The notes under the pieces were generated by a model that did no database searches, had not been told where the DNA came from, and saw only the letters and a list, made by a program, of their open reading frames with translations. From NCBI GenBank assembly GCA_963842165.1, contig CAWJFK010000023.1, forward strand, positions 110,817 through 174,816: a DNA stretch of 64,000 nucleotides, given 5' to 3'. The stretch is from an uncultured Thermoplasmata archaeon (GTDB lineage: Archaea > Thermoplasmatota > Thermoplasmata > Lutacidiplasmatales > UBA184). This document shows, piece after piece, positions 9,835 through 62,738 of this stretch (its first letter is position 1; each line of letters starts with the position of its first letter). The position numbers and the translations under genes are program-made.

Positions 9835-10494
9835 CTACGTCCGGCGGGGGCCGGCGGGGGGTGGGGCCACGACCCAATTGTCTGCGGTCGTCGATCGTGA
9901 AGGCTCGCGTGCGCGGGGCGGCTCGGACGTTCCCGCCGGGTGGGGGGTAGGGTGGCGCAGGTCCCGCGCGATCGATTCGCCCAGTGCCGTCAGGCGGTAG
10001 ACCTTCCGACGACGGTCCACTCCCGAGATGTGACGGCGGTCCACGGTGAGGACCTCCGCGGCCTCGAGCCGCTGGAGGACCCGGACGAGGCTCCCTTGAC
10101 GGACCGACAACGCCGCGGCCATCCCTTCTTGCGTGAACCCGAGACGGGCGACCTCGTCCGCCCCGAGTCGGCCGAGAAGAGACAGGTGGAGGATAACTCG
10201 GCGGGCCAATCCCAGTCCCTCTCGCGCGGGAGGGGCCGGGGTTCCCGGCGCTTCCGTCGGGCCCCCCGCCGGCATCGAGGCTGCAGGGGAGGGAGCACGG
10301 ACCGAGAGGGAAGGTGGCACCTTCGCAGGGGAGGGGGGAGCGGGGCCGCCCGACGAATCCGCCACCCGAGGGCTGGGTTCGGTCTCGGGTGCGGAGACCC
10401 GCCACTGCGTCCAGAGATAATGGCCCAGCCATCCAGCGGCGACCGCTCCGACCGCTACGGCGACCAGCTCGAGGAGGTCCGCGGCCATCCGCAC
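9835..10494 (-). CDS. Membrane-anchored winged-helix (MarR/PadR-like) DNA-binding protein, copy 1
   Basis: N-terminal hydrophobic helix, Pro-rich linker, TQEGMAAALSVRQGSLVRVLQRLE helix-turn-helix, RRKVYRLTALG wing. Confidence 0.8.
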   Translation of the reverse strand: MRMAADLLELVAVAVGAVAAGWLGHYLWTQWRVSAPETEPSPRVADSSGGPAPPSPAKVPPSLSVRAPSPAASMPAGGPTEAPGTPAPPAREGLGLARRVILHLSLLGRLGADEVARLGFTQEGMAAALSVRQGSLVRVLQRLEAAEVLTVDRRHISGVDRRRKVYRLTALGESIARDLRHPTPHPAGTSEPPRAREPSRSTTADNWVVAPPPAGPRRT

Positions 10495-10596: not shown

Positions 10597-13500
10597 CTAC
10601 CGGGTCCGGCCCCGGTCCGACTCGCGGCCCTCCCGCTGGAGCTCCCGGACCCACTCCTCGCCCTCCTTCCTCTTCTGCTCGAACCGATAGCGGGTGTACC
10701 CCCACACTCCGGCCAGGGAGGCCAGGACCGCGGTGATCAGGGAGACCGCGACGACCAGCGGGACGGTCCACGTCGCGGCGATCGTGCCTTCGGGGGCCGG
10801 ACTGGTGTAGCTCACCGAGACCGGATTCGGGGCCGCCCCTTGGACGGTCAGGGTCGAAGCCGAGAGGGAGACCCGGTATCCTGCCGGACCGGTCGCTGTC
10901 AGGGAGTACGACCCGTCGGGCAGCCGGAGGGTGATCTGGGATCCGGTCGATTGACCGGACGTCACGGCCTGGGTGGCCTGGTTGACCGCCGTGACCGTCC
11001 AGAAGGACCCGGTGGGCAACCCGGACTCGAGGAAGAACGCGGGGAAGGTGCTGTTCGAAAAGGCCACCGCGACCACGACGAGCGCCCCGTCGACGATGAC
11101 CTGCGGCGAGTAGTTCGCCGTGTAGCCGACCACCCCGCTCACGTTGAGGACGTAGGTCCCGTTCGGGACTCCAAAGGAGAGCGTGGTCCCCGCGGAGGAG
11201 AGGGTCGTCCCGCCGAGGGTTGCCGACCAGTCCGTGCCGTTCGCCAGGCCCGATTCTACGACGTCCACCCCGTAGACCAACTCGCCGGTCGCGTAGGAGA
11301 TCTGGACGATCACGGCCGTGCCGGAAAGATTCACCCACCCGAGGCTCGGCGACGGAAGGTAAGAAGAGACGCTTCCCACGAAGAACTGGTACGTCCCGTT
11401 CACCGCCGCGAACGAGATCGTCGGGCCGGTCGAGCTGAGGTTCGACCCGCCCAGGTCGACCTGCCACGCGGTGCCGGAGGGGAGTCCGGTCTCCTGGAAC
11501 GCGACCGTGTAGGAGGGACCCGAGGAGGCGTAGGAGAGATTCACGGCGGGGACCGGACCTCCCGCCACGATCACCGTGCCGTTGTTGGGGGTCGGGAAGT
11601 ACGTCGTCAAGCCGTACGAGGCGAACGCCTCGTACCAGTACGTTCCGTTCGGATCGTCGATCACGATCGTGTTCGAGTTCGTTCCCGCCCACTGGCCGGA
11701 GAGGTTCACGGACCAGCTCCACCCCGAGGGCAGACCCGTTTCTTGGAACGTCACTGGGTAGGTGACGATTCGTACGAACGTCACGATCACCGTCAGGTTG
11801 GCCCCGGCCACCACGAACAGGCCGGAGACGTTGACGGCGGCGTACGTTCCGTTCCCGTTGATCTGGAAGAAGTACGTCCCGTTGGGCTCACCGAAACTCA
11901 GGGTAGAGACCGGGGCCTGGGCGTATTGCCAGGAGCCGTTGACCCCGACCGACCAATTGGTCCCGCTGGGCAGGTCGTTCCCGTCGTTGAACGTCACGAC
12001 ATACCAGGCGGGGCCGGAGAAATTCAGGTAGACCTGGGTGGACTGGCCGCTGACCAGTACCCAACCTTCCGAGGACGGAAGGCTGTACCCGGCGCGTCCG
12101 CCGGTAACCACGTAGAAGTAGCTCCCGTTGGGCTCGTCGAATTGGAGCCAGCCACCGGTGGTGGTCCGGACGGCCCCCCCGACAAAGACCGACCACGAGG
12201 TACCCAGTGGCAGGCCGTTCTCCGTGAACTCGAGGCCGTACAGCGGGGGGTTCGCGGTATACGTGATGTACACGGTCGTCCCGTTCGGGCCCACGGTGAC
12301 ATTGCCCGCGGCAGGGGACGGGAAGTACGTCCCGCTCGAGGAAACGCTGTACTGGTACGGGACGGTGGCGTTCGGCTGCACCATGAACTCGAGCGGATTC
12401 GAATCGCCGCTCTGGGCGAGCTGGTCCGCACCGATCGTCACGCCCCAGTAGGTTCCGTTCGGGAGCCCGGTTTCCTGGAATACGAGCGGCACCCCCGGCG
12501 GAGGACTGGTCCCGAGGAACTGTGCGCACTCGAACGTCGTGTTGGCCGTGTTGGTGACGCAGACATCCCCGGTATCGGGGTCGTACACGACCCCCGACGG
12601 GTCGAAGGTGAGGACCGCGTAGACCGACTCGTTGGCCGTCGAAATCACGACGAGCGGGTTGAGGCCGCCGCCGACCCACATCATCCCGTCCGCGGGGTCG
12701 TAGGCGATCCCCTGGAGGTCCAGCGGAAAACTCGAGTTGGTGGACACCGGAATAGTAAGGACACTGAGGAAGGAGCTGCCCGAAATGACGCTGACGTTGT
12801 CGGACCCCTGGTCCGTGACGTAAACGTTGTCGGTCGCGGTGTCGACCGCCACGCCATAGGGTCCCTGGTCAACCGTGACGTTGGCGAGGCGCACTCCGGT
12901 GGATCCCGAGATGACGGTCACGTTGTTGGAACCGTAGTTCGCGACGAAGACATCCCCCGTGGAAGGGTCGGCGGCGATTCCGATGGGATCCGACCCGACC
13001 GGCACGCTCGCGAGGAGGGTGAGAGTCGAGCCGGAGATGATCGAGACGTTCGCGCTCCCGTTGTTGGCGACGTAGATGTCCCCGTTCACGGGGTCGAACG
13101 CGACGCCCGTGGGGCTCGTTCCGACCAAGATCGTCGCAATCGGAGCGGTGTCGTTGCCGGAGAGGGCGCTGACATTGTCCGAGCCGGAATTGGCGACAAA
13201 GATGTCACCGGTGAGATTGTCGTACGCGACACCGAAGGGATTCGAACCCACCGGGATGGTCTCGCTCACAATAGGATTCCACGTGAAATTCCCCGGCACG
13301 ATGTCGACACTCGAAGGGGGAACCGCGACGTAGAACGATTGGTCTGCGTTGTCGTAGGCCAACCACGCCGGGGGCCCGGGAAGATACCCGGGGGGCGTGG
13401 GATTCAGTGCCACGGTAGCGAGGCGGTGGTGCGGGAGGGTGGCGAGGGGATGGGCCACCGCCGGAGCCGCCACGCCCGGAGGAGCGGCCACGTCGGACAC

Positions 13501-13683
13501 GGGGTGAGCGGCGGCGAGAGTCGCCCCGCTCCAAGATCCGACGGAGGCCAGGAGGACGATCAGGGCCACCCCCAGGACCCAGCCGGCAACGACGGTCGGG
13601 GGAGCCGGTGCATTCAGGACAGGATGGGCAGCCCGGGGCGAGGGCATCGGGACGGTTCCAATCCTCGGCCGATCCGCGCTCAT
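10597..13683 (-). CDS. Cell-surface protein: YVTN/YncE beta-propeller, thermopsin-type Ig-like repeats, C-terminal TM
   Basis: Signal-like hydrophobic segment; repeats VGSNPFGVAYD...IFVANSGSDNVS; repeats VTFQETGLPSGTxWSV...PNGTY; TM plus basic tail. Confidence 0.85.
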   Translation of the reverse strand: MSADRPRIGTVPMPSPRAAHPVLNAPAPPTVVAGWVLGVALIVLLASVGSWSGATLAAAHPVSDVAAPPGVAAPAVAHPLATLPHHRLATVALNPTPPGYLPGPPAWLAYDNADQSFYVAVPPSSVDIVPGNFTWNPIVSETIPVGSNPFGVAYDNLTGDIFVANSGSDNVSALSGNDTAPIATILVGTSPTGVAFDPVNGDIYVANNGSANVSIISGSTLTLLASVPVGSDPIGIAADPSTGDVFVANYGSNNVTVISGSTGVRLANVTVDQGPYGVAVDTATDNVYVTDQGSDNVSVISGSSFLSVLTIPVSTNSSFPLDLQGIAYDPADGMMWVGGGLNPLVVISTANESVYAVLTFDPSGVVYDPDTGDVCVTNTANTTFECAQFLGTSPPPGVPLVFQETGLPNGTYWGVTIGADQLAQSGDSNPLEFMVQPNATVPYQYSVSSSGTYFPSPAAGNVTVGPNGTTVYITYTANPPLYGLEFTENGLPLGTSWSVFVGGAVRTTTGGWLQFDEPNGSYFYVVTGGRAGYSLPSSEGWVLVSGQSTQVYLNFSGPAWYVVTFNDGNDLPSGTNWSVGVNGSWQYAQAPVSTLSFGEPNGTYFFQINGNGTYAAVNVSGLFVVAGANLTVIVTFVRIVTYPVTFQETGLPSGWSWSVNLSGQWAGTNSNTIVIDDPNGTYWYEAFASYGLTTYFPTPNNGTVIVAGGPVPAVNLSYASSGPSYTVAFQETGLPSGTAWQVDLGGSNLSSTGPTISFAAVNGTYQFFVGSVSSYLPSPSLGWVNLSGTAVIVQISYATGELVYGVDVVESGLANGTDWSATLGGTTLSSAGTTLSFGVPNGTYVLNVSGVVGYTANYSPQVIVDGALVVVAVAFSNSTFPAFFLESGLPTGSFWTVTAVNQATQAVTSGQSTGSQITLRLPDGSYSLTATGPAGYRVSLSASTLTVQGAAPNPVSVSYTSPAPEGTIAATWTVPLVVAVSLITAVLASLAGVWGYTRYRFEQKRKEGEEWVRELQREGRESDRGRTR

Positions 13684-13708
13684 AATGATCTGTAGGCGGT
13701 CCCGGGCT

Positions 13709-13746
13709 TATGAACCCAGGGCGATTTTACGTCAGAAATATTCCGG
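13709..13746 (-). promoter_or_regulatory. Putative promoter/operator motif shared with 54442-54480
   Basis: Minus strand CCGGAATATTTCTGACGTAAAATCGCCCTGGGTTCATA, ending 25 nt before the ATG. Confidence 0.55.
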
Positions 13747-46231: not shown

Positions 46232-46304
46232 CGCGAGGCCTGACGAGAATCGATCCCTGGGGGCGTGATCAAAGTCCTGAGTTCGCGAGCGCGTGACCGA
46301 ATCT

Positions 46305-46795: not shown

Positions 46796-46918
46796 TTTCT
46801 AAGGCTCCGAGTCGAACGACCGATAAGTGAGTTACTCCGGGTGCCCAGCCTTCCTCGGAACAAAGTCCCGCGACCTGGGACCGACCTTTATCTAAGGGCG
46901 GAACCCACGCGAGAGTCC

Positions 46919-47882: not shown

Positions 47883-48047
47883 GTACTCTCTACCCGATAA
47901 GTTCAGGTCATCTCGAGCTTGGGCAGGCCCCGGCTGTCAAGGATCCCGGACAACCCGACCTCGCCCGAGCCCCGGCCCCGGAAGCCTGGGTCGTGACTCG
48001 GGTCGCCCCGTGGGCAACGGGATGGACTTCGTCCTCGACCGATTCGT

Positions 48048-50156
48048 ATGGCCGACACCGGGGGAGGTAGCAAGAACTATCGCAAGCGTCAGGTTCCGGA
48101 TCTCGTGCGCCTGACGCAGATTTCGGTCCAGAACTTCCTCACCTTCGGTGAGAGAGCCGGCGTCCTCAAACCGCGGGCGGACAGGAACGTCCTACTCGGC
48201 CCGAACGGTGCTGGAAAAACGAGCCTATTCGAGGCAATTGACTTCGTGGGGTCCGCGTTCGGATACCCTGGCCCCCCGATCGAGCCGTATCGCCATCGCG
48301 GGAACGATTTGGCCGAGCCGAACATCGAAGTAAGGGTAAAACTCCTCGGCCCCGAGATCAAGGCGCTCACCGACTGGATGGTCCTCGCTGGGCTGTCCGA
48401 GCAGCTCAACATCACCCAAGGTACGAACGAACTCGGGGAGAACCCCGACCTCGGCGCGGCCCGGAGTCTCTCGAGAGAGCTGATCGGCTTCACGAGGCCG
48501 GCGTTCGATGCGCTCTTCTCGCGGGAGATTGGCTTCCGGGTCCAAGGAACTGGGAATCCCTCGCGTCCCCTCCGGTCGTGGATCGAGTTGCGCGCGGGAC
48601 CGGACTCCCTGTACATTTCCGAGAACGCCGGGCTGACGCTAGGCCGCGACTGGAATGGGGGTGGGTTCGTCTTCGATCTCCGGAAGGAGACCCTGAAAAC
48701 GCTCCTCGAGATCGCCCCAAACGCGCTGGCCCTCGATCCGGCGAAGAGGTCGGCGACGAGGGGCCAAGTCGCTCGGGCTGGTCGACGGTTCAACCTCAGG
48801 TGGTTGGTCGAGGGACTGCGGGTCCCAAGCCAAGGAACCCGGTTCGTCCAGGTCCACTCCTTCAACCTGAGAAGTTACGAAAGCCAAGAACGCGACACCC
48901 CCTCTCTTGCAAACGACCTTCTCCGCTTCCTGAAATCGCGTGGCTTCAGCTCCGAGACCATCGGGCTGCGCGAGCTCTTTCGCCTTGTTCTCGCGACCTC
49001 GGTCGTCCGCCTGTCGAATTTCCGGTCTCCTCCGAACTATTATCCGGAAGAAACGTTCGATCAGATCCCGACCCACTTTGAGCAATTGAACGGATGGGAA
49101 CTTCCCGCCGCGCTCTGGAGGCTCAAGGATAGTCCGGAACGGTCCGACCGCCAGCGGTTCCAACGCGTACAGGCCGCGTTCAAGGAGGTCTCGGGTGGGA
49201 TCGAGGTAGACGTCACCCTGGAGTCGGAACAGGTTACTCCCACCGTTCCCCCGACTAACCCTGCAACGGAGCACCCTGCACCCGCGCCCAACACCTCCAT
49301 GAACGCCCCTCCGCCCGCGTACCGGCAGTTCCCACGGATCCGCTTCTTTGACGAGCCGTACGAGTTCGGTTCGTTCAATGCCTCGGCCGGTCTGTACGAG
49401 TCGCTCCTGCTCGTTTTCACGGCCTTCGAGAGCGAGGGCGCAGTCGTGGTATTGGACGAGCCGGCTACAAATCTCCATCCCGCAAAGCAGCGTGAGTTCG
49501 CGCGCCTTCTCACGACGCGACTCGCGACTTCGGGTGTCCAACTGTTCGTCATCACCCACGCCCCCTCGTTCGTCGACCGCCAGAACCTTCGAGGGCTGGT
49601 CAGGGTCGACCGCCCGTCGGGCGCCACTCGACTTCTCCCGATAGACAAGAAGGCGGGGTTCGCGTACGACGAGCTGGCAAGTCAGGCCCAGATCCTCCCA
49701 AACCTGATCCCGATGCTATTCGCCCGGAAGGTGATACTATTCGAGGGAGACCAGGAGGCCCGTTCGCTACCAGTGTGGTTCCGGAAGATCGAACCCGGGA
49801 TAGAGCCTGGAGACCTCGGGATCGATACGGGTGACGGAGGCGGCGACCCGAAGTTGGTAATGCACGCAAAGGCGCTCAAAAAACTCGGGATTCCCTTCGC
49901 TATTGTCGGCGACCGGAAAAACAAGAAGGCGCTGAGGGCCTTCACTCCGAATGTGTTCACCGTCCCGTACTCGGACTTCGGCCGGATGGTCCGAAAGGAG
50001 TGCGAGCCGGAACTCAACCGAGTCTACACGCGCAAACCATGGCCCGACAAGATCGGAGCCGACGCCTGTCGGCGAGTCGCTGAGCTGGGCAATCCTCCAC
50101 CCTCCGTGATCGCTCTCTGGGATCGAATCAAGTCATTCATCGACGAGCCCCTCTAA
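48048..50156 (+). CDS. OLD-family-like ABC ATPase plus TOPRIM domain
   Basis: VQNFLTF, GPNGAGKT, VLDEPATNLHP, ITHAP, LFARKVILFEG, IVGD. Confidence 0.85.
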   Translation: MADTGGGSKNYRKRQVPDLVRLTQISVQNFLTFGERAGVLKPRADRNVLLGPNGAGKTSLFEAIDFVGSAFGYPGPPIEPYRHRGNDLAEPNIEVRVKLLGPEIKALTDWMVLAGLSEQLNITQGTNELGENPDLGAARSLSRELIGFTRPAFDALFSREIGFRVQGTGNPSRPLRSWIELRAGPDSLYISENAGLTLGRDWNGGGFVFDLRKETLKTLLEIAPNALALDPAKRSATRGQVARAGRRFNLRWLVEGLRVPSQGTRFVQVHSFNLRSYESQERDTPSLANDLLRFLKSRGFSSETIGLRELFRLVLATSVVRLSNFRSPPNYYPEETFDQIPTHFEQLNGWELPAALWRLKDSPERSDRQRFQRVQAAFKEVSGGIEVDVTLESEQVTPTVPPTNPATEHPAPAPNTSMNAPPPAYRQFPRIRFFDEPYEFGSFNASAGLYESLLLVFTAFESEGAVVVLDEPATNLHPAKQREFARLLTTRLATSGVQLFVITHAPSFVDRQNLRGLVRVDRPSGATRLLPIDKKAGFAYDELASQAQILPNLIPMLFARKVILFEGDQEARSLPVWFRKIEPGIEPGDLGIDTGDGGGDPKLVMHAKALKKLGIPFAIVGDRKNKKALRAFTPNVFTVPYSDFGRMVRKECEPELNRVYTRKPWPDKIGADACRRVAELGNPPPSVIALWDRIKSFIDEPL

Positions 50157-50308
50157 CGGGCCGGAAACCACCGCGGTTCAACACTAACTCGGACCTGGAG
50201 CTGACCCGGGGGTCAATTCTTCGTCAGTAGCTCCCGTGCGGCGTGGGCGGCAAGTGCTGGACGCTATCCCCGTCTTTTCGCCGTCGATAAGGATGGACGG
50301 ACAAGTAG

Positions 50309-52121
50309 TTGGCCGGACTCATTGAGATACCTGGCGACCAAAATCGGGCTGACTTATCTGGAAGGACGATTATCGGGCCACTGGCCCAGCGCGAGATGTC
50401 ACCCACGGGATTGACCACATTTCCAGTTGACTTCGGACTGGCACCCGACTACGTCGAGTCGGCGAGCAGGCTACCGGTCTCCTTCCCGACCGCACTCTGC
50501 GAACTTATCGACAACTCGATAGCGTCGACACCTTCGGGGGCTCCCGGGTTCGGAGTCGACCTCTACATCCATGAGACCCCGGCGGACTCGCTGCGCATCA
50601 TGCTGTCGGATGCCGGCCCGGGCATGCCTCCCGGCTATGTCGAGCGCGGCCTCTTCTTGCTTGGGGGGAAGCCTGCCCTACCGCCCGGGCCGTTTGCGTC
50701 TCTGAACGAGCACGGCCTAGGCCTCAAGCAGGCACTCCCCAGGCTAGTTCGTGACTCAGGTTACGTGTTCGAGTTGCGTTCTGGTTTCCGAGGTACTCCG
50801 GGTTCACCGATTGAGTACAGCCACATCCAAGGCGTGCTCACAACCGATCCCCTCCGCAAGATGAGCGGGCACCGGTGTGACCTACTCGCGGCTAAGCGGC
50901 TCCATGCGGGAGAAGCTCACTTCAATGCGGGGGTAAAGCCACGAGGTTGGAATCCGAATACCGGAACGCGACTCATCTTCGACTGCTCCAAGGGGTGGGC
51001 ATACGAGGGTTGGCAGTCCCCGTTCGGGATAGATCCCTCCTCAGTTGATTTCAAACGCTTCGCACAGCTGCTCAACGAGCATCTTGGGGTCACGTACCGG
51101 CATTTCCTTTCCCCCACGGGCAGGTTTGCCCTAGGTACTCCGGAACTCGATTAAGTGCCGATACTGGGCCGCCACGGGCCGTGCTCTTGGCCAATTCGAG
51201 ATCAAGCCAGTCGAAGTCCCCTATGAACCTGGCAAGTCGAAGTCAAGCACCTTCGCAGTGTCTAACGGAGCCGTCTCCATCGACGTCTCGTACTCGAGGG
51301 GAATATCGGACGCTGCGGTGTCCGCTACCAGGCAGGCATTCCACAAGATCAATCCCAGGGCCCAAGGCTATGACTTGGTCGTCAACGGCAAGGTACTCCA
51401 GTCCGCCGTTCTTGAGGAGGTCTGGGGGCGCAACAAACATCCCGGCCTCAACACTCTCACGGGCGAGATCATCTTTGAGGTGACCTCGGGAATCCTTCAC
51501 ACTACATCCACGAAGGATGGTCTTGACTGGAACCAGGACATCCTCGACGATGTTAGGACGGAGATTCGCAAGCTCGACTGGAGCGCTGAACATGTAGTTG
51601 ACATGTTCAGGCCGCCCCCACCAGCACCGCCGAAGTCTCGATTTCGGTGGGCGGGGCACGAAACGACCCTACACAAGCTCTTGGAGAGGGCGTGTCTTGC
51701 CGCGTATCCGACTTCCACCACGCGCCGTCCTCACTCCGCGTGGCCGATGGCGTCGACGGGCATCGATCCCAGAACTGCTGCGGATCTGACTTTTGACGAT
51801 CATCGCGGGTTCATCGTAATGGAGGTGAAGAAGGGTTACGTGGAGCCGCTTGACCTGTATCAGCTTCGACTCTATCGGGACGGTTTCTGCTTTTCGCGAG
51901 CCCCAAAACACCCGAGTTTCGGTTTGCTCATTGGCGACAGCGAACCGCCCGGGGTGAAGTGGTTGAGAGCTTACCTCAACCGACAGAAGGACCCCTGTGG
52001 AACCCTCTATCAGCTTCAGTTCCGACCGCTTAGTTTTTTCGGGCTTCCGCCACGTTATCCGGGGGGGTCCGCAAACGTTTCCGCGATGAGGAGTCTAATC
52101 GAGAAATTGTTGGGCCCATAG
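50309..52121 (+). CDS. GHKL (MORC-like) ATPase fused to a C-terminal restriction-endonuclease-fold domain; indel near 51150
   Basis: ALCELIDNS, DAGPGM, LNEHGLGLKQA, TGT; then ADL...VMEVKK...LYQLRLY. Confidence 0.78.
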
Positions 52122-52671
52122 CCAGTCCTTACGACGTGACCTCCGGGTCCGTTTACCGTCAGAGGGGGAACCGTGGACGCGCGTCGAAAGCCCTGATTTC
52201 GATCCTGAATGCGGACCAGTCTCCTGTCGAACGAGTTGGCACTGAGCGCGACCGATCCTGGCGCGGCTCGTTGCTTTTCTGACACCGTCGTGGTGCGTTC
52301 GGACTCGCTCACATCTCTTCGGACGGAACAGACAACGTAGCGGCAGCACCGTTCCACGCATTCTCTCGCCAATCAGGCGCGGGGGCCATCCGCCCCAGAC
52401 CTGGCTGGGCGGTGGGGCATTCGCGCTGGGGAAAACTAAGGGTGCCTTGGCGGGACCCTTGAAGACTGGACCGAATCGTGAAATGGTTGAGCCCTTCTAG
52501 GTGCGCTGACAAAGCTGAGAAGTGTTCCACGTATGGGATTGGACTACTAGGTTGGCACGGAGGAGTAATTCACAACGCTCGTGAGGTTCCACATCGACGT
52601 GGAAGACAGTGGGGCCGCCGTCAGAGCCTATACGGAGGCTCTACGAACCAAGGTTGTAGGGGTCAACTGGG

Positions 52672-53004
52672 CTAGACTATCCTGACCGGTTGTTCGGTCT
52701 TGGGTTTGAGGACTTTGATATCGTAGTCAACAAGGACTTGGTTTGCCGCCCACCTAATGGCTTCCAAGAACGCAATCATCCCGGCCGTGGACTCAGGGAC
52801 GATTGAGATGTTGTATACGTCGGTGGAAGTGTCAACGTCCATGGTAAAGCGAATCCCTTTGGGAACCTGGAACTGCTGTTGCTTTACTACGACGGTCTTT
52901 GTCTTGGGCGGCTCAACGGTAGTTCTGCGGTTAGGTTGCTTCTCCTCAGTCTCATTCCCCCGCGCTTGAACCCCCACCCGAGTACTCTCCTGCATCCCGT
53001 TCAT
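52672..53004 (-). CDS. Hypothetical protein
   Basis: ATG overlaps the reconstructed glycosyltransferase stop (ATGA); protein-like composition. Confidence 0.55.
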   Translation of the reverse strand: MNGMQESTRVGVQARGNETEEKQPNRRTTVEPPKTKTVVVKQQQFQVPKGIRFTMDVDTSTDVYNISIVPESTAGMIAFLEAIRWAANQVLVDYDIKVLKPKTEQPVRIV

Positions 53005-54154
53005 CGAATCATCTCCGCGCATAATACCTCGAGCTCACTCGCAAGGTGCTCCCACTTGAGTTTCGGGGGCACCCCCCCACTCCCTTTGGGCGACCCCAGA
53101 GACTTACCCAAGCAATCAGCTGCGTCATCGACGTTGGCGAACCACTCATAGCCTAGTTGATGCGGGTATCCTGCCGAGATCGGACCAAGAAGGACGAGTG
53201 AAATTCATCCCAATGGCTTAGAACCTCTCGATGGACTGGGAAGTCTGTCATTATGGTTGGAGTGCCGCACGACGCGGCTTCCGCCATCGGCGAGTTGAAA
53301 CCCTCCGCGGTGGTGAGGCTAACCACAGCAGTCGCGGAACGGTACAGTCCTGCCATATCGCCTTCCGTCATGCCGATTGTGTGGCCCGAGAATCCCGCCC
53401 CCGACCGAAGGGCGATTCGTCCCTTTCCCCATAGACCGGCCGCCTTGACTATCTCCTCAAGTCGAAAAAAGCCTTCAGATGGTGAGTGCAAATAGAGAAT
53501 GGCATCGGAGTCGTACCTTTCGAGGAACGACTTGAAGGCCAGGATAAGCAACGGCTGCATCTTTCGACCGGTCGACCAATTGGTCGCGACTTGGACAAAC
53601 AGGGGAACATCTGAGGGAAGACCGAACCTATCGAGGGTTTCCGGTTCAGCTTTCCCGGCGTGATAGATGTCGGGGTTTACGCCTGGGTAAAGCCGCCTCA
53701 TGCGCGTCCGCGGCGCGCCACATCTAGTGAGTACTTCCAGTCCCCAGTCAGTTGTCACAGTCGTAAGGTCGGCTTCGGAGCTTACGGTGTCGACGAAAAA
53801 GTCCGGATAGTAATCGTGATCCACCGGCGTGTAAGCCATGAATTTTCCTCCGAACCTATGCGCGATAGGCATCAGGTGGTAGGGCTTTGCCGCTGACTCT
53901 TCCGATAACACCCAGTTGTCACGGATGTGAACGGTTACATCGGGTCTGAAGGTGGAGAACGCCGACTCTCGCGCATAGGCGTCATTGAAAGCGATAACAT
54001 GAACCCCCTCGACTTCCCGAGGGGGGCCGACGTGCTGAAGCCCAAAGTTCGCAACGACGTGCCCCCTGCGAACAAGCCAACTCCCGAGCTCGAGTGTTTG
54101 CTTACCGTAATCGGTGGGGAATGTGCAGAGGTCCCCGGCGAGAGCGATTCTCAT
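53001..54154 (-). CDS. GT-B (family 4-like) glycosyltransferase; indel near 53155
   Basis: PGVNPDIY, GRKMQP, EGFNSPMAEAASCGTP; continues LGYEWFANVDD...KWEHLASELE. Confidence 0.88.
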
Positions 54155-54441
54155 TCGTTTTGCGAGTGGACTCGCCTACATGAATGCTTCCGAAATATCC
54201 TGGAGTCTCAGAGGGGGCCGCCGAGAGGGCGCGTGTCGATTCCATCTGCCAAGCCCCAGCCCTCGTCCGCTCCGCCTGAGCCTGCAGGGCTGCTAGTTTC
54301 CCTGTGCCCAGACCTTGTCCTTGATTGCCGTTCCTTCCGTGAGAATGATTCACGATCCCCTAGGGCCCCCAAAGGTCAAGGGAAAGCTGGCCCTCAAAGG
54401 TTGTGATTTTCACTTGGCCCGACGACACTCATATGTGGAAA

Positions 54442-54480
54442 TCGGACATATCTGAGTCGTATCTTCGCCGAGGGCTTATG
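54442..54480 (+). promoter_or_regulatory. Putative promoter/operator motif shared with 13709-13746
   Basis: TCGGACATATCTGAGTCGTATCTTCGCCGAGGGCTTATG, ending 25 nt before the GTG start. Confidence 0.55.
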
Positions 54481-54505
54481 TTGCGGGAGACCCAATACAA
54501 CGAAC

Positions 54506-56649
54506 GTGCGCGCTTCAGTTACCGCGGTAATGGCCGCCCTGATCGTTCTCTTGGGAGCCTCAACTCTGGCCCCGATTTGGGAGGAACAGTTAGGCGATGG
54601 GAACGCTCCTGTGGGCCACCAGTACGGCTCGGCCTCATCACTGCCGATGCAGGGTAGGTCATCTAGCGTCCGAGATGGTGCTAAGACAGGCGTAATGGAC
54701 CCGAAGTCGGCAGGAAGTCAGCCGACGAAGTGTCTGCTTGGTGGCAGCCACGATTCTGGGTGCGGCGAATTGTTGAGCAGCAGGAGCTCGACATCTGCGT
54801 CCGGCCCGGTTTGGACAAATCTCAGCACCCCGGGCGGGCCACCCCCCCTCTATGATCTCTCGATGGGATATGATGCAGGCGACGATCAGACCGTCGTTTT
54901 TGGAGGATTCAACCCTGCGGCGACTGCGGTCAGCTATACTTGGACTTTCACCAATGGGACGTGGACGAATCTAAGCCCCCAGCTCACTCAGTTCCCTTCC
55001 GCTCGGGGTGGCATGTTAATGACAGACGACCCAACCGATGGGTACCTCCTCGCATTTGGGGGTAATGGGATGGCTTGTTCTCCCTCGGAATATTATGGTT
55101 GCGCAGACACATGGACCTTCGAAGGCGACTCTTGGAGCTTGACTAATGCAAGTGCACCGATTCCAGCGGCAGGAAGAACTGGATTTTCGATGGCGTTCGA
55201 CTCTTCGTCGTCTTACGTCCTGCTCACTGATGGGTGGGCTACTTGGAAGTGGTCAGGAGCGAATTGGACGCCATTTTGCGCCAGCCCCTCTAATTGTACT
55301 TTGTTCATACCTGGTCCGGACATGACTGGGTCCCTAAGCGACGACCCGGCCCTCGACGGCCTACTGTGGTATGGCGCTGGATTCACCTGGGTTTTTGCGT
55401 CGGGAAACTGGACAAACGTCTCGGCGACCGCGGGACAAGCACCCTCTGGCGCCAACGGACAGCTTGTCTATCCCCCCGCCTCGGGGGTCCCACTTCTCGT
55501 GGTGACGGGGGGCTATAGCCAAAACGTGACGCTAGACCAATTCGCTAACGACAGCTGGACAGTTGTCTCAAGCGGGTTTTCGCCTCCCGCCCGTTCCGAG
55601 GCAGGTATTTCGTACGCTGGTTCGGCAGCTGATATCCTGATGTTCGGCGGCTGGAACCTCTTCGGGCCCACACGAATCTTGAACGAGACTTGGGCATGGG
55701 GGTCGAGCCCGCCAATTAGCGGGCTCAACATCTTCGTTCAGCCGACGGTCCCTGAGCCAGCGCAAGTGGCGACTTTCAACGAATCCTTCGTCGGCGGTGT
55801 TGCCCCTTTCGGATACTCTTGGGGCTTCGGAGATGGAAACACCAGTTTCGTCCCAACTCCTATTCACAGTTTCGACGCAATCGGGCACTACTCAGTCCAG
55901 CTATGGGTCAACGACAGTGGCGGGCACCACGCATTCGCCCAACTGACCGTCAAAGTTTACGTTCCGCTTTCGATCCGAGTACTTCCGGGTGTCCCCCGCC
56001 ATTCCTGCGCTGGGTCAGCCGGTGAATTTCTCGGTGCTGGCCACTGGTGGGACGCAGCCGTACCTTTACTCGTGGTCATTCGGGGACGGAGGGACGGGGG
56101 GAGACCTTCCTAACATTACCCACCTCTACACGACAAACGGCCCATTTTACGCCCAGGTTACTGTGACTGACGGTCTTGGAGCCACGGTCAAATCAGGGCA
56201 GAACCTGTCCATCCGCCTCCAGGCGATTGCTGGGATCGAGCCTTCGAATTCTAGCTCGCCTCTTACGGTGGAATTCATCGGGCAAGCCCAGGGTGGCGTT
56301 CCGCCATATACATTCGACTGGTCATTCGGAGATCATTCCCCAAACTCGACCTAGCCAGAATCCGACCCACTCATACTCCTTCGCAGGGGAATATGTCGTG
56401 CGGCTCTCCATCACCGATGGAGCGGGGAACCGATCCACTAGTGAACTTTCTCTTCAAGTGGGGGCTGAGTCGACTAGTCCAGTCGGGCCGTCGGGAAGCA
56501 CGTGGTGGGGCTGGCCCCTTGCCCTAGGGCTGACGGCCGCTGTGGGGGTGGGTGTTGCAGGTGCATGGGTGATTACGTTCAGGAGACGACGATCGCTGCG
56601 GAGTGAGGTTAAACGCTGGGTGGACGAGCTCTTGAACGAGGAGCCTTAA
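54506..56649 (+). CDS. Cell-surface protein: Kelch-like propeller, three PKD domains, C-terminal TM; indels near 55980 and 56350
   Basis: Signal peptide; VVFGG...TWTF...WT repeats; GGxxPYxYSWxFGDG repeats; TM plus RRRR tail. Confidence 0.85.
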
Positions 56650-56766
56650 GGCAATTCTCCCTCAGGAATCTGATTCCGTTGCACGCAGTTTGGCCGAAAG
56701 CTCAAAGCGAGATGCTGACTTACCATGCGGCAGTCGGTTTGAATCTCGGGATAAGTCGGTGCGAGT

Positions 56767-57282
56767 GTGATCTGGGGATATCTGGGAGTCGGACTCGCGG
56801 TAGGCGGAGCCGCCGGCTGGGCCCTCAGGTCGATTCTGTTTCGACCTTCTCGCTCCAGCGACAGAGTTGGCGAAAACACAAGAACTCCACTAATCCCCGC
56901 CCCTCCAGAACAGACTGAATCAGTCGCTCATTCCAGCCCTAGGGCAACTAATCTTGGGAAGGTAGTTTCACCCGGAGCCGCAACAGTCGCCCGAGTGGTT
57001 TTGCATCTCTACTCACTTGGAAGGCTCGGACCGGACGAGGTCGCTAGAGTTGGGTTCACTCAAGGAGGAATGGCAGAAGCCCTGCAGATTAAGCAAGGAA
57101 CATTGGCCCGGATCTTGACACGGCTTGTGGCAGCGGACGTGGTCGAGTGCCGGACACAGCATGTCTCGGGTCATGCCCGCCGATTGAAAGTCTACAGGTT
57201 GACAGCTGCGGGAGAAGCCTTGGCACGAGATTTTCGGAGACACCCGAGAAGCCAGTACTTGGCCATCCCTCGCCTGAACTAG
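56767..57282 (+). CDS. Membrane-anchored winged-helix protein, copy 2
   Basis: N-terminal TM; 52 of 82 residues identical (ungapped, hand count) to 9835-10494. Confidence 0.82.
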   Translation: MIWGYLGVGLAVGGAAGWALRSILFRPSRSSDRVGENTRTPLIPAPPEQTESVAHSSPRATNLGKVVSPGAATVARVVLHLYSLGRLGPDEVARVGFTQGGMAEALQIKQGTLARILTRLVAADVVECRTQHVSGHARRLKVYRLTAAGEALARDFRRHPRSQYLAIPRLN

Positions 57283-57349
57283 TCGCCTGATTTCTCGGGT
57301 TGCCGGTGGACGCCGGCGTTGAAGAGGGATACACCGCGGACGACTCGGT

Positions 57350-58649
57350 GTGTACCCAAACGTCCGCGGCGGCGGTCGTGAGACCGCAACAAGGGGAGCT
57401 CGCCACCGAGAGAAATATCCACCGACCCAGCACGCCCGTCGGCGAACCCGACCGCTCACCGATCGGGAGGTGCGCCGTCAGGCGCATCATTGGCTCCTCC
57501 CCCTACTCGCCTCCGCCCTCGCCAGCCCGTTCTCCTCGCCGGTCCGCCGCGGCGTCGCCGACCTGATCCTTCGCGCCTCGGCCCAGCGGCTTTCAGTCAC
57601 CCGGGCCCGGGCTCACTCTCGTCAGGGTCCTTCGGACCGACACGCCCGTCGGGTGCTCCAACAACTCGACCTCGGCCGCACTCAGCATGCGCTGACGCGC
57701 GCCTTGCGCGAACAAGCTCGGCCGTACGTCCCTCGCCACCCGGTCGATGTCGCCCTCGGCTTCTACGACATCCACTACTACGGCGGGCCGATCGACCCGG
57801 CCCACCCGCAATTCGTTAAGACGCAGGAGTCCCGCGGGACCCACCGGACCTACCACTACGCCACCCTCGACCTGCTCCTGCCGAACTTCCGGCTTACGGC
57901 ATCGGTTCGCTACGTCCGCGAGCGGGGCCACCGCCGCCGAGCGGTCGCCCGGGCGCTCGAGGACACCCGGCGGTGCGGCGTCCAGGTCCGCCGCCTCTAC
58001 CTGGACCGCGAGTTCTACGAATACGATACCTTGAGCTGGCTGAAGGCCGAAGAATACACGGTCCTTACCCCCCATGCGCTTGGGTTCGAGACAGCGCAAG
58101 AAGTGGGAGCGGGGCCAGTGCTCCTACGTCACCGAGCACACCCTTCGAGACCCTCGGCGGAGGGGCGAGTCCCTCGGCTTACGGATGCATGTGGTCGTCC
58201 GCTACCAGAAAGGGAAGAAGTGGAACAAGCGAGGAGCGCAGTACCTCGTCTACGAGGTGATCGGCCACGTGGCGAACGATGCGATCCGCGACGTCCCTCT
58301 CCACTCGACCCATGCCCTCTACCGAAGGAGGTTCGGCATCGAGACGTCGTACCGACTGCTCGGTCAGGCGCGAGCGATCACGACCAGTCGGTCCCCGGCG
58401 CTCCGACTCCTCTACGTCGGGGTCTCCCTGCTGCTCCAGAACGAGTGGGTGATCCTCAAGCTCCGATTTACGAGCGAAGGACGGCAAGGCCCGACAGGGT
58501 TTGTCGTCCACGAAGAGTTGTTGCGGTTCGCCACACTCCTCGAGTGGCTCGCGAGCGCGGTGGCCCGACGACTGGGTTCAACTCGAGAGATCTATCGTCC
58601 GGGGCGGTTCCCCCATCGCCTCCGCGCGATGGGGATCGCACCCATGTGA
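57350..58649 (+). mobile_element. ISH3-family (IS4-like) DDE transposase; indel near 58070; element ends not identified
   Basis: DIHYYG, RGTHRTYHYAT, LYLDREFY, YRRRFGIETSYR. Confidence 0.85.
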
Positions 58650-58664
58650 GCCGCGGCTACCTTC

Positions 58665-59357
58665 TTGACCTCGGTCGAGGTCAGGAATGGCATGCCCCGA
58701 GCAGGGTCTCAAGCGAATAGCCGGCGAGTGCCGTCCTCCCCCCGTACGGCGTACCAGCTTCGGATCACCCTCCTCGGAGCCCGTCCGCCGATCTGGCGAC
58801 GGGTCTGGGTGCCCCCGGGCGAGTCCGCGGAGTATCTCCACGACGTGATCCAGACGGCGATGGGATGGTACGACAGCCACCTCCATCAGTTCCTCCTCGG
58901 TGAGCGACCCAACTACATCTCGGTGGAACCACCGGATCCTGAGAACCTCGGGGATCATCCGAGCGTGGACTCAAGGCACATGCCCATTCGGGCACTTCTC
59001 CAACGAGGCGGTGGTCGTGTTCTCTACAACTACGATTTCGGTGACGACTGGATGCACGAGGTGCGGCTCGAGAAGGAGGTTCCTCTCGAGGAGAGAGCCT
59101 TCCTGCCGCAGTGCCTGGAGGGGAAGAGGGCCTGCCCTCCGGAGGACTGCGGGGGCGTCTATGGCTATGCCGACATTGTGAGGATGCTCAAAGATCCGAA
59201 GTTCAAGCCGGCGGGTAGTTCCCGAGAGGAACTCCTCGAGTGGTTGGGCGACGAGTTTGACCCTGATGCGTTCGATGCAGAGGTGGTGAACGCCCAGTTC
59301 AGGCCGACACGAAGGACCGCACGAAGAGCCCGAACGAAGGTGAAGAAGTCAACCTAG
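58665..59357 (+). CDS. Plasmid pRiA4b ORF-3 family protein
   Basis: YQLRITL...PPIWRR, LHDVIQTAMGWYDSHLHQF, YDFGDDW, RACPPEDCGG. Confidence 0.93.
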   Translation: MTSVEVRNGMPRAGSQANSRRVPSSPRTAYQLRITLLGARPPIWRRVWVPPGESAEYLHDVIQTAMGWYDSHLHQFLLGERPNYISVEPPDPENLGDHPSVDSRHMPIRALLQRGGGRVLYNYDFGDDWMHEVRLEKEVPLEERAFLPQCLEGKRACPPEDCGGVYGYADIVRMLKDPKFKPAGSSREELLEWLGDEFDPDAFDAEVVNAQFRPTRRTARRARTKVKKST

Positions 59358-59411
59358 TCCCCGGTCGGGGATGGCCAAGTACTGGAATCGGGACAGGGTT
59401 GGACCACACTA

Positions 59412-60548
59412 CTGACCGTTCTAGTAGATGCATTGATATCGACGGACCGGCTATCCCCTGGGCGTGGCGCGCTGGGCACAACAGCATCGTGACACGCTCG
59501 TCCTCGAGGAACGACGGCTCAAGGGCCTCCAACTGCTTCGTCAGGGAATTCGACCGGCCGAGGTCGCCCGCCGCTTGGCAGTCTCGCCTCAGGCGGTCGA
59601 TCACTGGAAGCGGCGCCTCGAGACGATGGGCCCGGAGTCCCTTCGCGCCCAACCTCGGCGCGGCCGGCTCCCCTTCGTCGAAGCGAAGAAGATGGCCACG
59701 CTCCCGGCGATCCTGGCGCGCGGCGCCCAGTTGTTCGGATACCAGACGGACCTCTGGACCCTTCGAAGGATCGCGTCCGTTCTCGAGAAGGAGTGGGGGG
59801 TTCGCTACAGCAAGAGCGGGGCTTGGGTCCTCCTCAAACGCACGGGGTACTCGTGGCAGCGACCCTCACGCCAGGCCCGGGAGAAGGATCTCGTCCGGGT
59901 GGCTCATTGGAAGCGCTACACTTGGCCCCGGCTCAAAAAAAAGCCCGGCAGCGTCGAGCGGTAATGGTCTTCGTCGACGAGAGTGGTCTCTCGCTCATCC
60001 CGTACAACGCGAAGACCTGGGCACCGGTGGGGAACACCCCGGTGCTGATCCATCAGGGGCGTTGGCCGAAGGTCTCGGCCATCGGCGGGATCACCTCTCG
60101 AGGCCGCCTCTATCTCAAAGTGCGCAAAGGCTCCATTCGGGGTCCGCAGGTGATCGCCTTCCTCCGGCACCTGCAGCGCCACATCCGGCGGCGGCCGATC
60201 ATGATCTTCTGGGACAACGGCCAACCTCACCGGGCCAAGCTCGTTCGGGCGTTCCTCGAGAAGAATCCTCGGATCGAGGCCCACCGACTTCCGCCCTACA
60301 GCCCGGACCTGAACCCCGAGGAGTGGGTGTGGGCCCATCTGAAGAAGCACGAGCTGGCGAGCTTCGCCCCCCACGACCTGAAGGAGCTGAAGCGGGGCGT
60401 CCGCCTGGCGGTAGTACGGATGCGAGATCGTCCCAAGCTCCTACTGAAGCTCGCCGGCTCCTCGAAGTTGCCCCACTGAATCGCACGAGACGATGTGGTC
60501 AGCACGATCTGCCGTCAGGGAGGGGCAAGACAACTTCTCGACGGTCAG
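59412..60548 (+). mobile_element. IS630-family element, 1137 bp, two-ORF transposase (59464-60479)
   Basis: TA-CTGACCGT...ACGGTCAG-TA ends; HTH ORF plus DDE ORF (FVDESG, WDNG, PPYSPDLNPEE); A-AAA-AAG at 59937-59943. Confidence 0.93.
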
Positions 60549-60713
60549 TAATCTCTGAATCCCCTTCGGAGATCGCCATTATGGCAGCGTCAGCCAACCG
60601 CGAGTCAATTTGGCGGTTCCGAAACCTATCTCGGCTTACGGACCTGAGATTCCGGGTTGCGCCGGTTCTTGAACCCATCCTAATCTATCCGTGCCGCTTA
60701 CCCATTGACTGCC

Positions 60714-62725
60714 TTGACAGCACTTCCGAGTGTTGGCACGGTTTCCGGGGTCGTCTCTTCGGGTACCACGTTCGCCCCTCTCAACCCTCGCCCAGACTGT
60801 CACAGGCGGGGCCATCATCTATCTCCAAGTGGCGATGTATGGGTCATCCCCGAGCGTTAGCTCCATTACTGATTCGCAGGGAGGCGTATACGAGAAGGTC
60901 GTAGCGGGCGCCAACGGCTCAGTCTACATGGCCGTTTACCGCCGCACCAGTCCCTTAGCGGATTCCTCCTCCTCATTCACCGTCGCCGCAACGCCTAGCG
61001 CCTCCGTCCCGATCGAGATGGTCGCCATCGAGGTGTGGAACGACGGAGGGGTCGACACCATGAGCTCCGTCCACTCCGGCACGGGTACCTCCGAGACGTC
61101 GAGCGTGGCGACCTCCGTCACCAATGACCTTGTCCTCTTCCTCGGCGCCGACAACTCCGGCAGTGGGCCAAGCTGGGGATCGGGCCAGACGGGCATCATG
61201 GGGTATCCCGCCACCCCTCCACCCAACGTTACTGCTTGGGGAAGCTACCAATCGCAGGTGTCTCCCGGCACCGCCAACTCGACACGCACTATCTCCACGT
61301 CGAAGGCCTGGGTGGCGGCGAGCATCGCCGTCTCGCCTCAGGTCCCGTGGTCCGCCCTCGCCGGGAAACCGTTCGTGACGGTCTCGTCGATTGGAACATT
61401 GACCACCCCCGCCTCTACCCTCCCCAACAACGGCGCCGACTTCGGCCCCGACACGCCCCTCACTGCCACCAGCGGCATCCAGGAGGCGCTCAACGCGGTG
61501 GTGAATGGGGGAACTGTCTACATCCAGGGCGGAACGTACACCCTTAACGGACCCATCTCGCAGACGGGGAGCTACCAGGTAGTCAATTTCGAGGCGGGCA
61601 CCACGTTGCAGATCGGATCGATGTTCCCGACGTCGGGCCTCGGCACGTGGGCCGGCGTGATCATCGTCGGATGGAACCTGGCGAACACCGAAGCATACCA
61701 CCACTGCTACTGGTACGGCAACGGCACTGTCCTGAACCTCTCCGGGATCCCAAACAACGTTTACGGAATCGCGATCGTCGGCAACGGACCGATGAACGGG
61801 GGCCCAAGCCCGGCTCCATTCATGCTCCGCGTCGATGGGTTCGAGGATCTCCGGAAGCTATGCTCCTGGCGGTAACGATCAGGTCTTCATTGCTTGCGCA
61901 AACGGCAATGGAACGAATCCGACGACTATAGACCAGACTCTCAGGGAAGTAAGGGTCAGTAGGATTTACACACACAACATCGCACCGGGATTCAACGGCG
62001 CCGGGATAACAGTGCGCGGATCCGTCAGGGGAGTTGAAATCGAGGATTGCTTCGTCGATTGTTCATCGGCAGCCGCCACCGATACCTACAACGCGATGTT
62101 CTTTGGCTGCCCACAGGGCGACAATCAAGGAATTGTTGTGAGGAGGACCGTCGTACTGTCCAACGGGACGTCTGGAAACGCACTATTGCTGGCGGGATCA
62201 CTTGACACTGCGGGGCACACCAAAACGCAGGGTGTCCTTCTCGAGGATTGCACGTTTCAGGCAGGTACCTCGGGCACAGCCAATGTTGGGCAGGGTCAAG
62301 GCGGAATTTACGTCACTGACGAACAATCCGTGAACGCCATAAATAACGTAGAGTTCGTGAGGTGTCAGTTCATACGAACTGCAGTGGGGACTTACTCGCT
62401 CAACAATTCAATATTCGGATACCTCAGGTTCCGGAAGGGTTCCATCCCCCCGAACTTTCCTCCTGGCCCGCTTGCCGGTAGAGGTCCGGGGGAGTCCCCT
62501 ACGACAGTCTCGATCGGGGCCAGCTCCCCCGCGACATACATTGCGACGGACGGGTTCGAAATCGACGCCATCGTCACGGGCGGGGCGGTTTCTGGTATCA
62601 CCCTAAACGGCTCGGCTACCTCTGTCGGATTCAACAGTGGAATTATCCGGCTGAGCGACGGGGATTCTCTGACGATTTCGTTCACTCCAGGCTCTGCTCC
62701 GACTGTGACGAAGATTGCGGCCTAG
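60714..62725 (+). CDS. Spike/adhesin-like beta-helix protein, variant A; indels near 60770 and 61846
   Basis: Ser/Thr-rich N-domain, NNGADFGPDT...TSGIQEALNAV, GGTVYIQGGTY, beta-helix-like repeats, short C-terminal beta domain. Confidence 0.6.
61472..61845 (+). repeat. Left arm of perfect inverted repeat (at least 374 bp)
   Basis: Identical to the reverse complement of 63627-64000. Confidence 0.95.
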
Positions 62726-62738
62726 AGCCGGTCACTTC

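Follow-up and report, generated by a model that had tools for sequence, protein, structure and literature searches.

A short DNA element stands at the same distance ahead of two surface-protein genes in one archaeal genome: is it a control site and, if so, which protein would bind it? The locus lies in a stretch of 64,000 nt from an uncultured Thermoplasmata archaeon (assembly GCA_963842165.1, contig CAWJFK010000023.1, positions 110,817 to 174,816), and this whole stretch is called the window here. It belongs to contig C23 of a genome of 2.15 Mb, which comprises 30 contigs with 66–70% G+C. Within the window we distinguish two modules, each a two-gene unit in which a surface-protein gene is followed by a gene for a protein with a winged helix-turn-helix (wHTH) domain. 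A reading of the sequence alone had noticed a similar motif ahead of both modules, and we found both motif strings at the coordinates it gave. Its spacing of exactly 25 nt between the last hexamer and the start codon is also correct (TTCATA ends at 13709 and the ATG occupies 13683–13681 on the minus strand; CTTATG ends at 54480 and the GTG starts at 54506). The comparison with related sequences indicates that the motif is a genuine, conserved control site which precedes operons for surface proteins in Thermoplasmata archaea from soil. It is most likely an operator that docks a membrane-tethered DNA-binding protein encoded in the same operon.

Architecture of the element in the two modules

Read towards the gene, the operator consists of a distal half-site, which precedes the proximal box CGTAWNWTCGCC with a period of 11 nt, a gap of 5 nt, a TATA-like 8-mer, about 23 nt and the start codon. 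Its parts in the window are as follows (box-only and TATA-part-only matrices were built from relatives and ranked over 4.3 million genome positions):

13736..13744, minus strand: distal half-site of module 1, GGAATATTT; 11 nt above the proximal box, columns 4–12 of the site alignment, kept in the footprint of the module-1 orthologues
13720..13731, minus strand: proximal box of module 1, CGTAAAATCGCC; rank 2 with the box-only matrix
13707..13714, minus strand: TATA-like 8-mer of module 1, TTCATAAG; 23 nt ahead of the ATG at 13683, putative TATA role from position only
54445..54453, plus strand: distal half-site of module 2, GACATATCT; columns 4–12 of the site alignment, 6/8 identical to the proximal 8-mer at offset 11
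54458..54469, plus strand: proximal box of module 2, CGTATCTTCGCC, equal to the family consensus; rank 1 with the box-only matrix
54475..54482, plus strand: TATA-like 8-mer of module 2, CTTATGTT; 23 nt ahead of the GTG at 54506, a weak match with rank 5472 in the TATA-part-only matrix

The segments between the TATA-like box and the start codon (13684–13706 and 54483–54505) are partly conserved within orthologue groups in a CCGGGA..CC.CAAT-like pattern, which may represent a promoter-proximal element or a further site.

For the two sequences taken by themselves the result is mixed. We compared the pairwise alignment of the two upstream regions with 126,253 genome windows and observed that its significance hinges on the scoring scheme and is not decisive alone. 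With the scoring +2/−1/−4/−2, no window for module 1 and one for module 2 scored at least as high as the pair; with +5/−4/−8/−4 there were 14 and 16 such windows and with +1/−1/−2/−1 there were 121 and 108, while under the strict scheme +2/−3/−5/−2 about 20,000 windows (around 16%) were as high, i.e. the pair is ordinary. The fixed pattern CGTANNNTCGCCNNGGG matches only the two window sites in the 2.15-Mb genome; since 12 fixed bases would match about once by chance at this base composition and the pattern was drawn from the pair itself, this uniqueness is not evidence. The observation is correct, yet its significance can be demonstrated only through related sequences.

Conservation of the element among relatives

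A search of 41 related genomes found the wHTH family in 21 of them, with no more than 8 matches in any one genome. For comparison we used the upstream sides of 33 loci; ten genus genomes contributed 32 of them, and the remaining one comes from a different family within the order. A local-alignment scan with the two window motifs revealed the same arrangement in many of these loci, and 42 distinct sites yield the consensus GGagTAtct..GgCGTATaTTCGCC..gggTTtATAA, followed by the start codon. After the position matrix had been rebuilt without the AT-rich locus L062, which had swamped the first iteration, the motif was found at 20 bits or more at 24 of 41 wHTH loci, located 1.5–4.1 kb upstream on the same strand, and 8 more loci scored 12–20 bits. 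Of the 24 strong sites, 17 have a start codon 20–24 nt beyond the TATA-like 8-mer that opens a frame of 77–1183 aa; the distance is 22 nt in four of them, 23 nt in six and 24 nt in five.

Because the matrix behind the count of 24 was trained on many of the same sites, three out-of-sample tests were carried out. A matrix made from the two window sites gave 7 matches of at least 20 bits in 684,402 positions of the relatives' module loci, compared to none in 4,296,892 other positions of this genome; at 18 bits the numbers were 10 and 1, and that single match lies ahead of a wHTH paralogue. Conversely, a matrix made from relatives only placed module 1 (37.4 bits) and module 2 (32.6 bits) at the top of this genome, followed by C25:56804 (29.1 bits) and C22:138201 (25.2 bits). 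All four lie upstream of wHTH paralogues, and the 99.999th percentile of positions is 11.8 bits. Finally, 38 metagenome contigs were found via the protein, and the 18 with at least 2.5 kb of upstream DNA were assessed: 15 carry the motif at 26–44 bits, 2.2–3.4 kb ahead of the wHTH gene. The control, consisting of opposite strands and downstream parts (331,236 positions), contained one match of at least 18 bits.

The motif is present in homologous modules of the genus genomes, of one AT-rich genome of another family and of independent metagenome contigs. The AT-rich locus L062 keeps the arrangement TGTATCT-N4-TGTATCTTCACC-N5-TATATAAA despite its shift in composition, and the same box architecture is seen at wHTH domains which are only 34–59% identical to the first sequence of the alignment. 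In both orthologue groups the sequences cannot be aligned above the distal half-site, while conservation starts with that half-site and extends over the TATA-like box; at the level of sequence comparison this is a classical footprint. In three metagenome loci forming part of the module-2 group (L081, L098 and L104) a palindromic GGAGTAACTCC element lies about 17 nt above the distal half-site; it is not found in module 2 of the window.

Distinction from a general promoter signature

A general consensus of the TFB recognition element (BRE) and TATA box of this genome would be expected ahead of many genes. We observed that the box part, and not the TATA part, picks out the window sites: in the box-only ranking the module on contig C22 follows the two window modules in third place, whereas with the TATA part module 1 is found at rank 74 and module 2 at the rank listed above. 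Among 67 filtered candidate leaderless promoters of this genome, TCGCC occurs at the box position in one and GTA in one, and no BRE consensus emerged from this set. The upstream A+T profile of 854 crudely called genes, with starts taken from the longest open reading frames and a caller that covers 65% of the genome, shows only a faint peak at −27. The sequence-only reading had called both hexamers poor TATA matches. This holds for the weak 8-mer of module 2, but not for module 1, where TTCATAAG is typical of its group; the consensus of the whole family is TTTATAA, and an argument from poor TATA matches carries little weight.

With a sequence-only covariance model built from 24 sites, a search of 41 whole genus genomes gave 40 matches at E ≤ 1. 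Twenty-five of them fall in the module loci used above, and most of these sites are in the training alignment; 23 of these are operon promoters and 2 lie before neighbouring genes (L041:9699 and L057:10524). Three matches belong to genome G019 and the remaining 12 are new: 4 have a wHTH gene 2.2–3.1 kb downstream (L066, L068, L069 and L074), 5 are truncated where their contig stops, one (L071) is weak and lacks a reading frame, and 2 are orphans, which are described below. Taken together, the data support a promoter-proximal, module-specific cis site rather than a general BRE/TATA consensus. Two motif-like sites (C20:22680 and C20:26359 in G000) have a different box, CATCTATTCTC...TTTAACAA, as in L059, and are placed downstream of the C20 wHTH paralogue, which may reflect a different gene order in that subfamily.

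Repeat geometry

We compared the proximal 8-mer with the DNA upstream of it in the 42 sites and found that identity peaks only at an offset of 11 nt, with a mean of 4.19 of 8 positions and at least 5/8 in 19 of 42 sites; other offsets give means of 0.9–3.1. A set of 32 sites behaves likewise (4.03/8 at offset 11 versus 1.25–2.9 elsewhere; at least 5/8 in 16 of 32 sites versus 0–3 sites). Out to 59 nt upstream no third or fourth repeat occurs family-wide in the 42 sites. The conserved unit is a direct repeat with an 11-nt period, not a palindrome. The imperfect palindrome YCGGA-N4/5-TCTGA, to which the sequence-only reading had drawn attention, lacks family-wide conservation; its CTGA is constant in a single set, the promoters of the five module-1 orthologues, and there it links the two half-sites. 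Since the half-sites are 11 bp apart, they would lie on one face of the DNA. Half-sites of the same site are somewhat more alike than pairs taken across sites (4.03 versus 3.49 of 8), a difference reached in 39 of 10,000 shuffles.

The wHTH protein as candidate binder

Next to the site itself, we investigated the distribution of motif and wHTH gene over the 41 genus genomes, using a profile search with E ≤ 1e-20 for wHTH membership and the covariance-model scan for the motif. Sixteen genomes have both, 1 has the wHTH only, 2 have the motif only and 22 have neither (Fisher p 2.3e-8, a value that exaggerates the association because genomes of the same genus are not independent). Genome G019 is counted among the 16; without it there are 15. 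The motif without the wHTH is seen in G002, through the weak site L071, and in G048, a genome 59% complete in which the contig ends 1.5 kb from the site.

The box variants also track wHTH clades, as listed here by recognition helix:

Q-N/S/T-x-L-T-N-V-L-R-R-L: box CGTATCTTCGCC, distal CGTATC
RQGSLVRVLQRL (module 1 and orthologues): box CGTAAAWYCGCC, distal GGARTAT
NQSAVSKVL (clade of three members): box ACTAAAGTCACC, distal ACTAA in two relatives and CTAA in the third
TQGA[VI]SKIL: box AATAWCTTCGCC

The two orphan promoters are informative because their flanks differ from module flanks. One (L064, 868–3392 in G023) precedes the gene of an 819-aa NHL surface protein that is followed by no wHTH gene and has no tail helix; its box CGTATATGCGGC is a rare variant that module L039 of that genome also carries. 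The other (L070, 9612–10116 in G022) precedes a 146-aa frame with no wHTH gene downstream and carries the CATCTATCCGGG-type box of module L053, again in the same genome. Such agreement between an orphan box and a module of its own genome is what a trans-acting factor encoded by that module predicts, and the orphans suggest small regulons.

Autoregulation by the module's own MarR/PadR-like wHTH protein is the best reading of these observations. Binding by this protein in an autoregulatory loop, as the sequence-only reading had proposed, would fit because the motif co-occurs with the wHTH, its variants track the clades and the wHTH gene stands in the same apparent operon. Besides the dependence among related genomes, several points weigh against it. 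Nine of the 41 wHTH loci score below 12 bits and have no motif (4 of these 9 are cut by a contig end), three of the 18 metagenome loci lack it (L078, L100 and L111), and genome G045 has the wHTH and no motif match. Both the tracking of clades by box variants and the likeness of half-sites are confounded by shared descent, and the excess of same-site over cross-site likeness is modest. Locus L099 combines the helix of the CGTATCT group with a CGTAAAT box. Several regulator homologues have no hydrophobic N-terminus, so that membrane tethering is not universal in the family, and the surface gene of module 2, with two frameshifts in a low-GC, mobile-looking island, may be decaying or affected by an assembly error. 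A simple code linking recognition helix and box was considered and rejected: groups are visible, but there are at least one exception (L099) and too few independent contrasts.

Regulator, operon structure and surface-protein tail

The 95-residue DNA-binding domain of the regulator was modelled with a predicted local distance difference test (pLDDT) score of 94.3 as helix-helix-helix-wing-helix. Its best profile match is the PadR-family protein Rv3488 (PDB 5zhc, E 7.2e-6), followed by MarR-family proteins, and the top Foldseek matches of the model are MepR, Rv3488 and AF1382. The 171-aa protein of module 2 reaches 26.4 bits with Pfam PadR (PF03551, cut-off 27) and 19 bits with MarR_2 (cut-off 27), and all NCBIfam scores are far under their cut-offs (padR_acidobact 27 versus 101.8). 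The regulator thus remains below the curated PadR and MarR cut-offs, yet its relation at the level of fold and profile is clear. Close homologues carry the public name 'PadR/MarR family regulator', and 'Thermoplasmata archaeon' is the sole organism name among them.

The full-length model of the 219-aa protein of module 1 consists of a helix at residues 3–33 (pLDDT 81–89), a low-confidence linker of about 55 residues and the wHTH at residues 89–180. The N-terminal helix is conserved with a G-x3-GW motif, and 17 of 18 residues are hydrophobic or small (window count); this conserved hydrophobic helix putatively inserts in the membrane. Some members of the regulator family have a signal, two PKD domains and a transmembrane segment ahead of the wHTH. 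Of 151 Thermoplasmata genomes, 106 contain a domain that matches the wHTH profile at E ≤ 1e-15, mostly as the last part of a frame of 400–1100 aa; the small tethered regulators may have arisen from a large family of transmembrane wHTH proteins that extends across the class.

The gap before the wHTH gene measures about 100 nt in many modules. By eye, the gaps of 13 modules contain no TATA-like box, and most of them have a purine-rich GGAGG-like stretch just ahead of the wHTH start, as for an internal gene of an archaeal operon. With the wHTH gene internal to the operon, a factor acting at the box would control the regulator's own synthesis.

The downstream coding sequences had been described as unrelated. 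This applies to the ectodomains, which differ between the two modules (NHL versus Kelch/PKD), but not to the rest of the proteins, which have a similar membrane anchor and cytoplasmic tail, nor to the next gene, which is a homologous wHTH gene in both. In general, module surface proteins have varied ectodomains and share an anchor, basic residues and an EGE-x-W/L-V-x-E-L-like helix (10597–10700 and 56520–56649 in the window; loci L032–L063). A tail pattern designed from the module tails finds 5 frames in the whole genome, all 5 adjoining a wHTH paralogue. We infer from this that the tail or anchor of the surface protein is a candidate docking site where the regulator would make contact. Two peat metatranscriptome runs yielded contigs that overlap parts of the surface gene of module 1, none of which covers the promoter; with DNA carry-over possible, they are a weak hint that this gene or a close relative is expressed.

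Proposed mechanism and direction of control

In the mechanism which we propose, each module is a two-gene operon in which a leaderless-type promoter would be followed by a variable surface protein, about 100 nt and a small MarR/PadR-like winged-helix protein. The conserved spacing of 20–24 nt between 8-mer and start codon suggests a possible leaderless transcript. The regulators of both window modules would be held at the membrane by their N-terminal helix. The motif would serve as the operator of the operon, with two direct-repeat half-sites of which the proximal one ends 5 bp above the TATA-like box and abuts the presumed BRE position. There the module's own wHTH protein would bind, probably as two parallel subunits, and thereby produce an autoregulated operon, and the input signal would reach it from the surface protein via the conserved anchor and cytoplasmic tail.

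As to the direction of control, activation of the operon by the module's own wHTH protein seems to us to have slightly less than an even chance. Archaeal activators typically bind upstream of the BRE (PMC5512572). The regulator sites considered here stand immediately upstream of BRE and TATA, as in archaeal activator-dependent promoters, with the TATA and BRE positions themselves presumed, and because of this placement we regard activation as somewhat more likely than repression. Moreover, a direct repeat would be a natural target for two parallel tethered subunits, as it is for ToxR, and for this reason we lean to positive autoregulation.

The strongest alternative is that the module's wHTH protein represses its own operon by occluding BRE/TFB, and that a signal from the surface protein releases it or sequesters it at the membrane. 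Proteins of the MarR and PadR families are mostly repressors which bind palindromes as dimers, and the closest sequence and fold relatives of the wHTH (Rv3488, AdcR, SlyA and MepR) are of this type. The proximal box, ending only 5 nt ahead of the TATA-like box, reaches into BRE territory, and a protein bound there could equally block TFB; hence fold family and distance fit repression almost as well as activation. The family TATA consensus is not obviously weak, and homologues without a hydrophobic N-terminus that are paired with tail-bearing surface proteins would fit a sequestration switch. Against repression stand the bulk of the operator upstream of the BRE, the usual place for archaeal activators (PMC5512572), the poor TATA-like box of module 2, and the direct repeat, which is typical of the membrane-tethered activator ToxR (PMC8517210). 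On balance repression is possible, though we would not expect it.

It is improbable that the operator is bound by another factor, for example a shared regulator of surface-protein genes, and that the module's wHTH protein has other targets. Such a factor would account for box promoters away from any wHTH gene (L064 and L070) and for the two matches ahead of neighbouring genes (L041:9699 and L057:10524), but it does not agree with the joint occurrence of motif and wHTH over the 41 genomes, with the clade-specific box variants, where both half-sites change together in the ACTAA clade, or with orphan boxes of the type carried by a module of their own genome. That the motif has no specific function and arose by chance, represents a generic BRE/TATA consensus or was left over as neutral sequence when modules duplicated would agree with the unremarkable alignment under strict scoring and with the generic TATA part, but is hardly credible in view of the cross-validated genome scans, the independent metagenome loci, the box retained in AT-rich L062 from another family and at widely diverged wHTH domains, and the sharp conservation boundary next to unalignable flanks, whose divergence argues against recent copies.

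Returning to autoregulation by the module's own wHTH protein, a wider picture can be drawn in which each module is a self-contained, insulated transmembrane signalling channel that runs from an exchangeable ectodomain (NHL, Kelch or PKD) through the anchor and tail to the wHTH, held by its own helix or docked to the tail, and on to a paralogue-specific direct-repeat operator in the module's own promoter. We consider this picture speculative and rather doubtful as a whole. Genomes contain as many as nine paralogues, and box variants diversify along with the recognition helix. If the picture were true, the modules would be an archaeal counterpart of ToxRS or of cell-surface signalling and would provide a natural set of orthogonal switches for the archaeal TBP/TFB promoter.

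Comparison with known systems

Transcription factors bound to the membrane occur in both bacteria and archaea. A census of transmembrane transcription regulators counts 1,384 archaeal examples, and its main text does not contain the words PadR, MarR or Thermoplasm; its supplementary tables may list such proteins (PMC10269533). These regulators are defined by a predicted DNA-binding domain and at least one predicted transmembrane region in one protein (PMC10269533); the wHTH model supplies the former, and the hydrophobic N-terminal helix is a candidate for the latter. In our literature search, with the supplementary tables of the census outside its scope, none of the listed papers that we consulted describes the wHTH family or the motif; one listed paper deals, by its title and the opening of its abstract, with a TrmB-family regulator.

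The membrane-bound archaeal examples that we found studied in detail in the literature are ArnR and ArnR1 of Sulfolobus acidocaldarius (PMC6396743). They are one-component activators that need both boxes for binding, and the likeness lies in a membrane-anchored archaeal factor, promoters of surface structures and two cis boxes upstream of BRE/TATA (PMC6396743). However, ArnR has an N-terminal HTH, a HAMP-like and sensor part and two C-terminal transmembrane segments, and its boxes, located around −43 to −84, are inverted repeats of 15 bp (TCGAC-N5-GTCGA) (PMC6396743). Here an N-terminal helix and a linker precede a C-terminal wHTH, the sites are direct repeats 11 bp apart that abut the BRE position, and the window regulators, unlike ArnR, are encoded in the operon they would control.

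ToxR is a membrane-tethered protein that binds the direct repeat TNAAA-N5-TNAAA (PMC8517210). With ToxR/ToxS the modules share a single-pass tethered winged-helix factor, a direct repeat of about one helical turn and a membrane partner encoded next to it (PMC10269533, PMC8517210), tethering and binding being predicted in our case. ToxR differs in being bacterial and in having an N-terminal OmpR-type domain and a periplasmic sensor domain (PMC10269533, PMC8517210). The window regulators have almost nothing outside the membrane. They also differ from it in their MarR/PadR fold group, in a wHTH placed C-terminal to the helix and in an archaeal TBP/TFB promoter, and the resemblance is limited to the logic of the direct repeat and the idea of a partner protein.

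EarA, Ptr2 and TFB-RF1 are soluble and encoded outside the operon they control, unlike the window regulators; a weak BRE is documented for them (PMC5512572), whereas the 67 candidate promoters of this genome yielded no BRE consensus. Rv3488, AdcR, SlyA and MepR, the best profile or fold matches of the wHTH, are soluble proteins as well. The system would work like ArnR and ToxR but belongs to neither family: the order of its domains, its fold family, the symmetry of its operator and the logic of its operon are different.

For an uncultured lineage living in soil, these results define a cis element, name a candidate for its binder and describe a promoter geometry that is conserved; they also link a large set of unannotated surface proteins to a regulatory logic. 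To our knowledge, there are very few archaeal regulators with a known operator. The modules could show how, and in which direction, a membrane-located factor controls an archaeal TBP/TFB promoter, and the clade-specific boxes and recognition helices offer natural variation for a recognition code.

Genes and genomic setting of the two modules

The genes of the two modules are:

10597..13683, minus strand: surface-protein gene of module 1, 1028 aa; N-terminal hydrophobic segment, NHL/YncE-type beta-propeller, repeats, C-terminal anchor and tail ...RKEGEEWVRELQ
9835..10494, minus strand: regulator gene of module 1, 219 aa; N-terminal helix, low-confidence linker of about 55 residues, MarR/PadR-like wHTH
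54506..56649, plus strand: surface-protein gene of module 2, GTG start; signal-like N-terminus, Kelch-type propeller, PKD domains, anchor and tail ...SEVKRWVDELL
56767..57282, plus strand: regulator gene of module 2, 171 aa; N-terminal hydrophobic helix and wHTH, paralogue of 9835–10494

The surface protein of module 1 has many N-x-S/T sites, and a gap of 102 nt separates its gene from the regulator gene. The surface gene of module 2 is split over three frames, the first from 54506 to about 55975, the second with two intact-looking PKD domains and the third from 56176 to 56649 with PKD, anchor and tail, and we therefore place two frameshifts near 55975 and 56340. The two window regulators are paralogues: both have a hydrophobic N-terminal segment and a linker rich in Pro, Ser and Ala, and over 85 residues their wHTH domains are 63.5% identical. 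This genome contains seven wHTH paralogues.

Module 2 sits in a region (44000–64000) with 57–63% G+C, compared to 65–72% in the first 44 kb. Its neighbours there are an OLD-family ATPase/TOPRIM nuclease (48048–50156), a PRiA4_ORF3 protein (58665–59357) and a DDE_3 transposase (59793–60479), and the low-GC stretch looks like a variable or mobile island. Elsewhere in the window, a frame of 1665 aa at 35477–40474 contains thermopsin-family peptidase domains.

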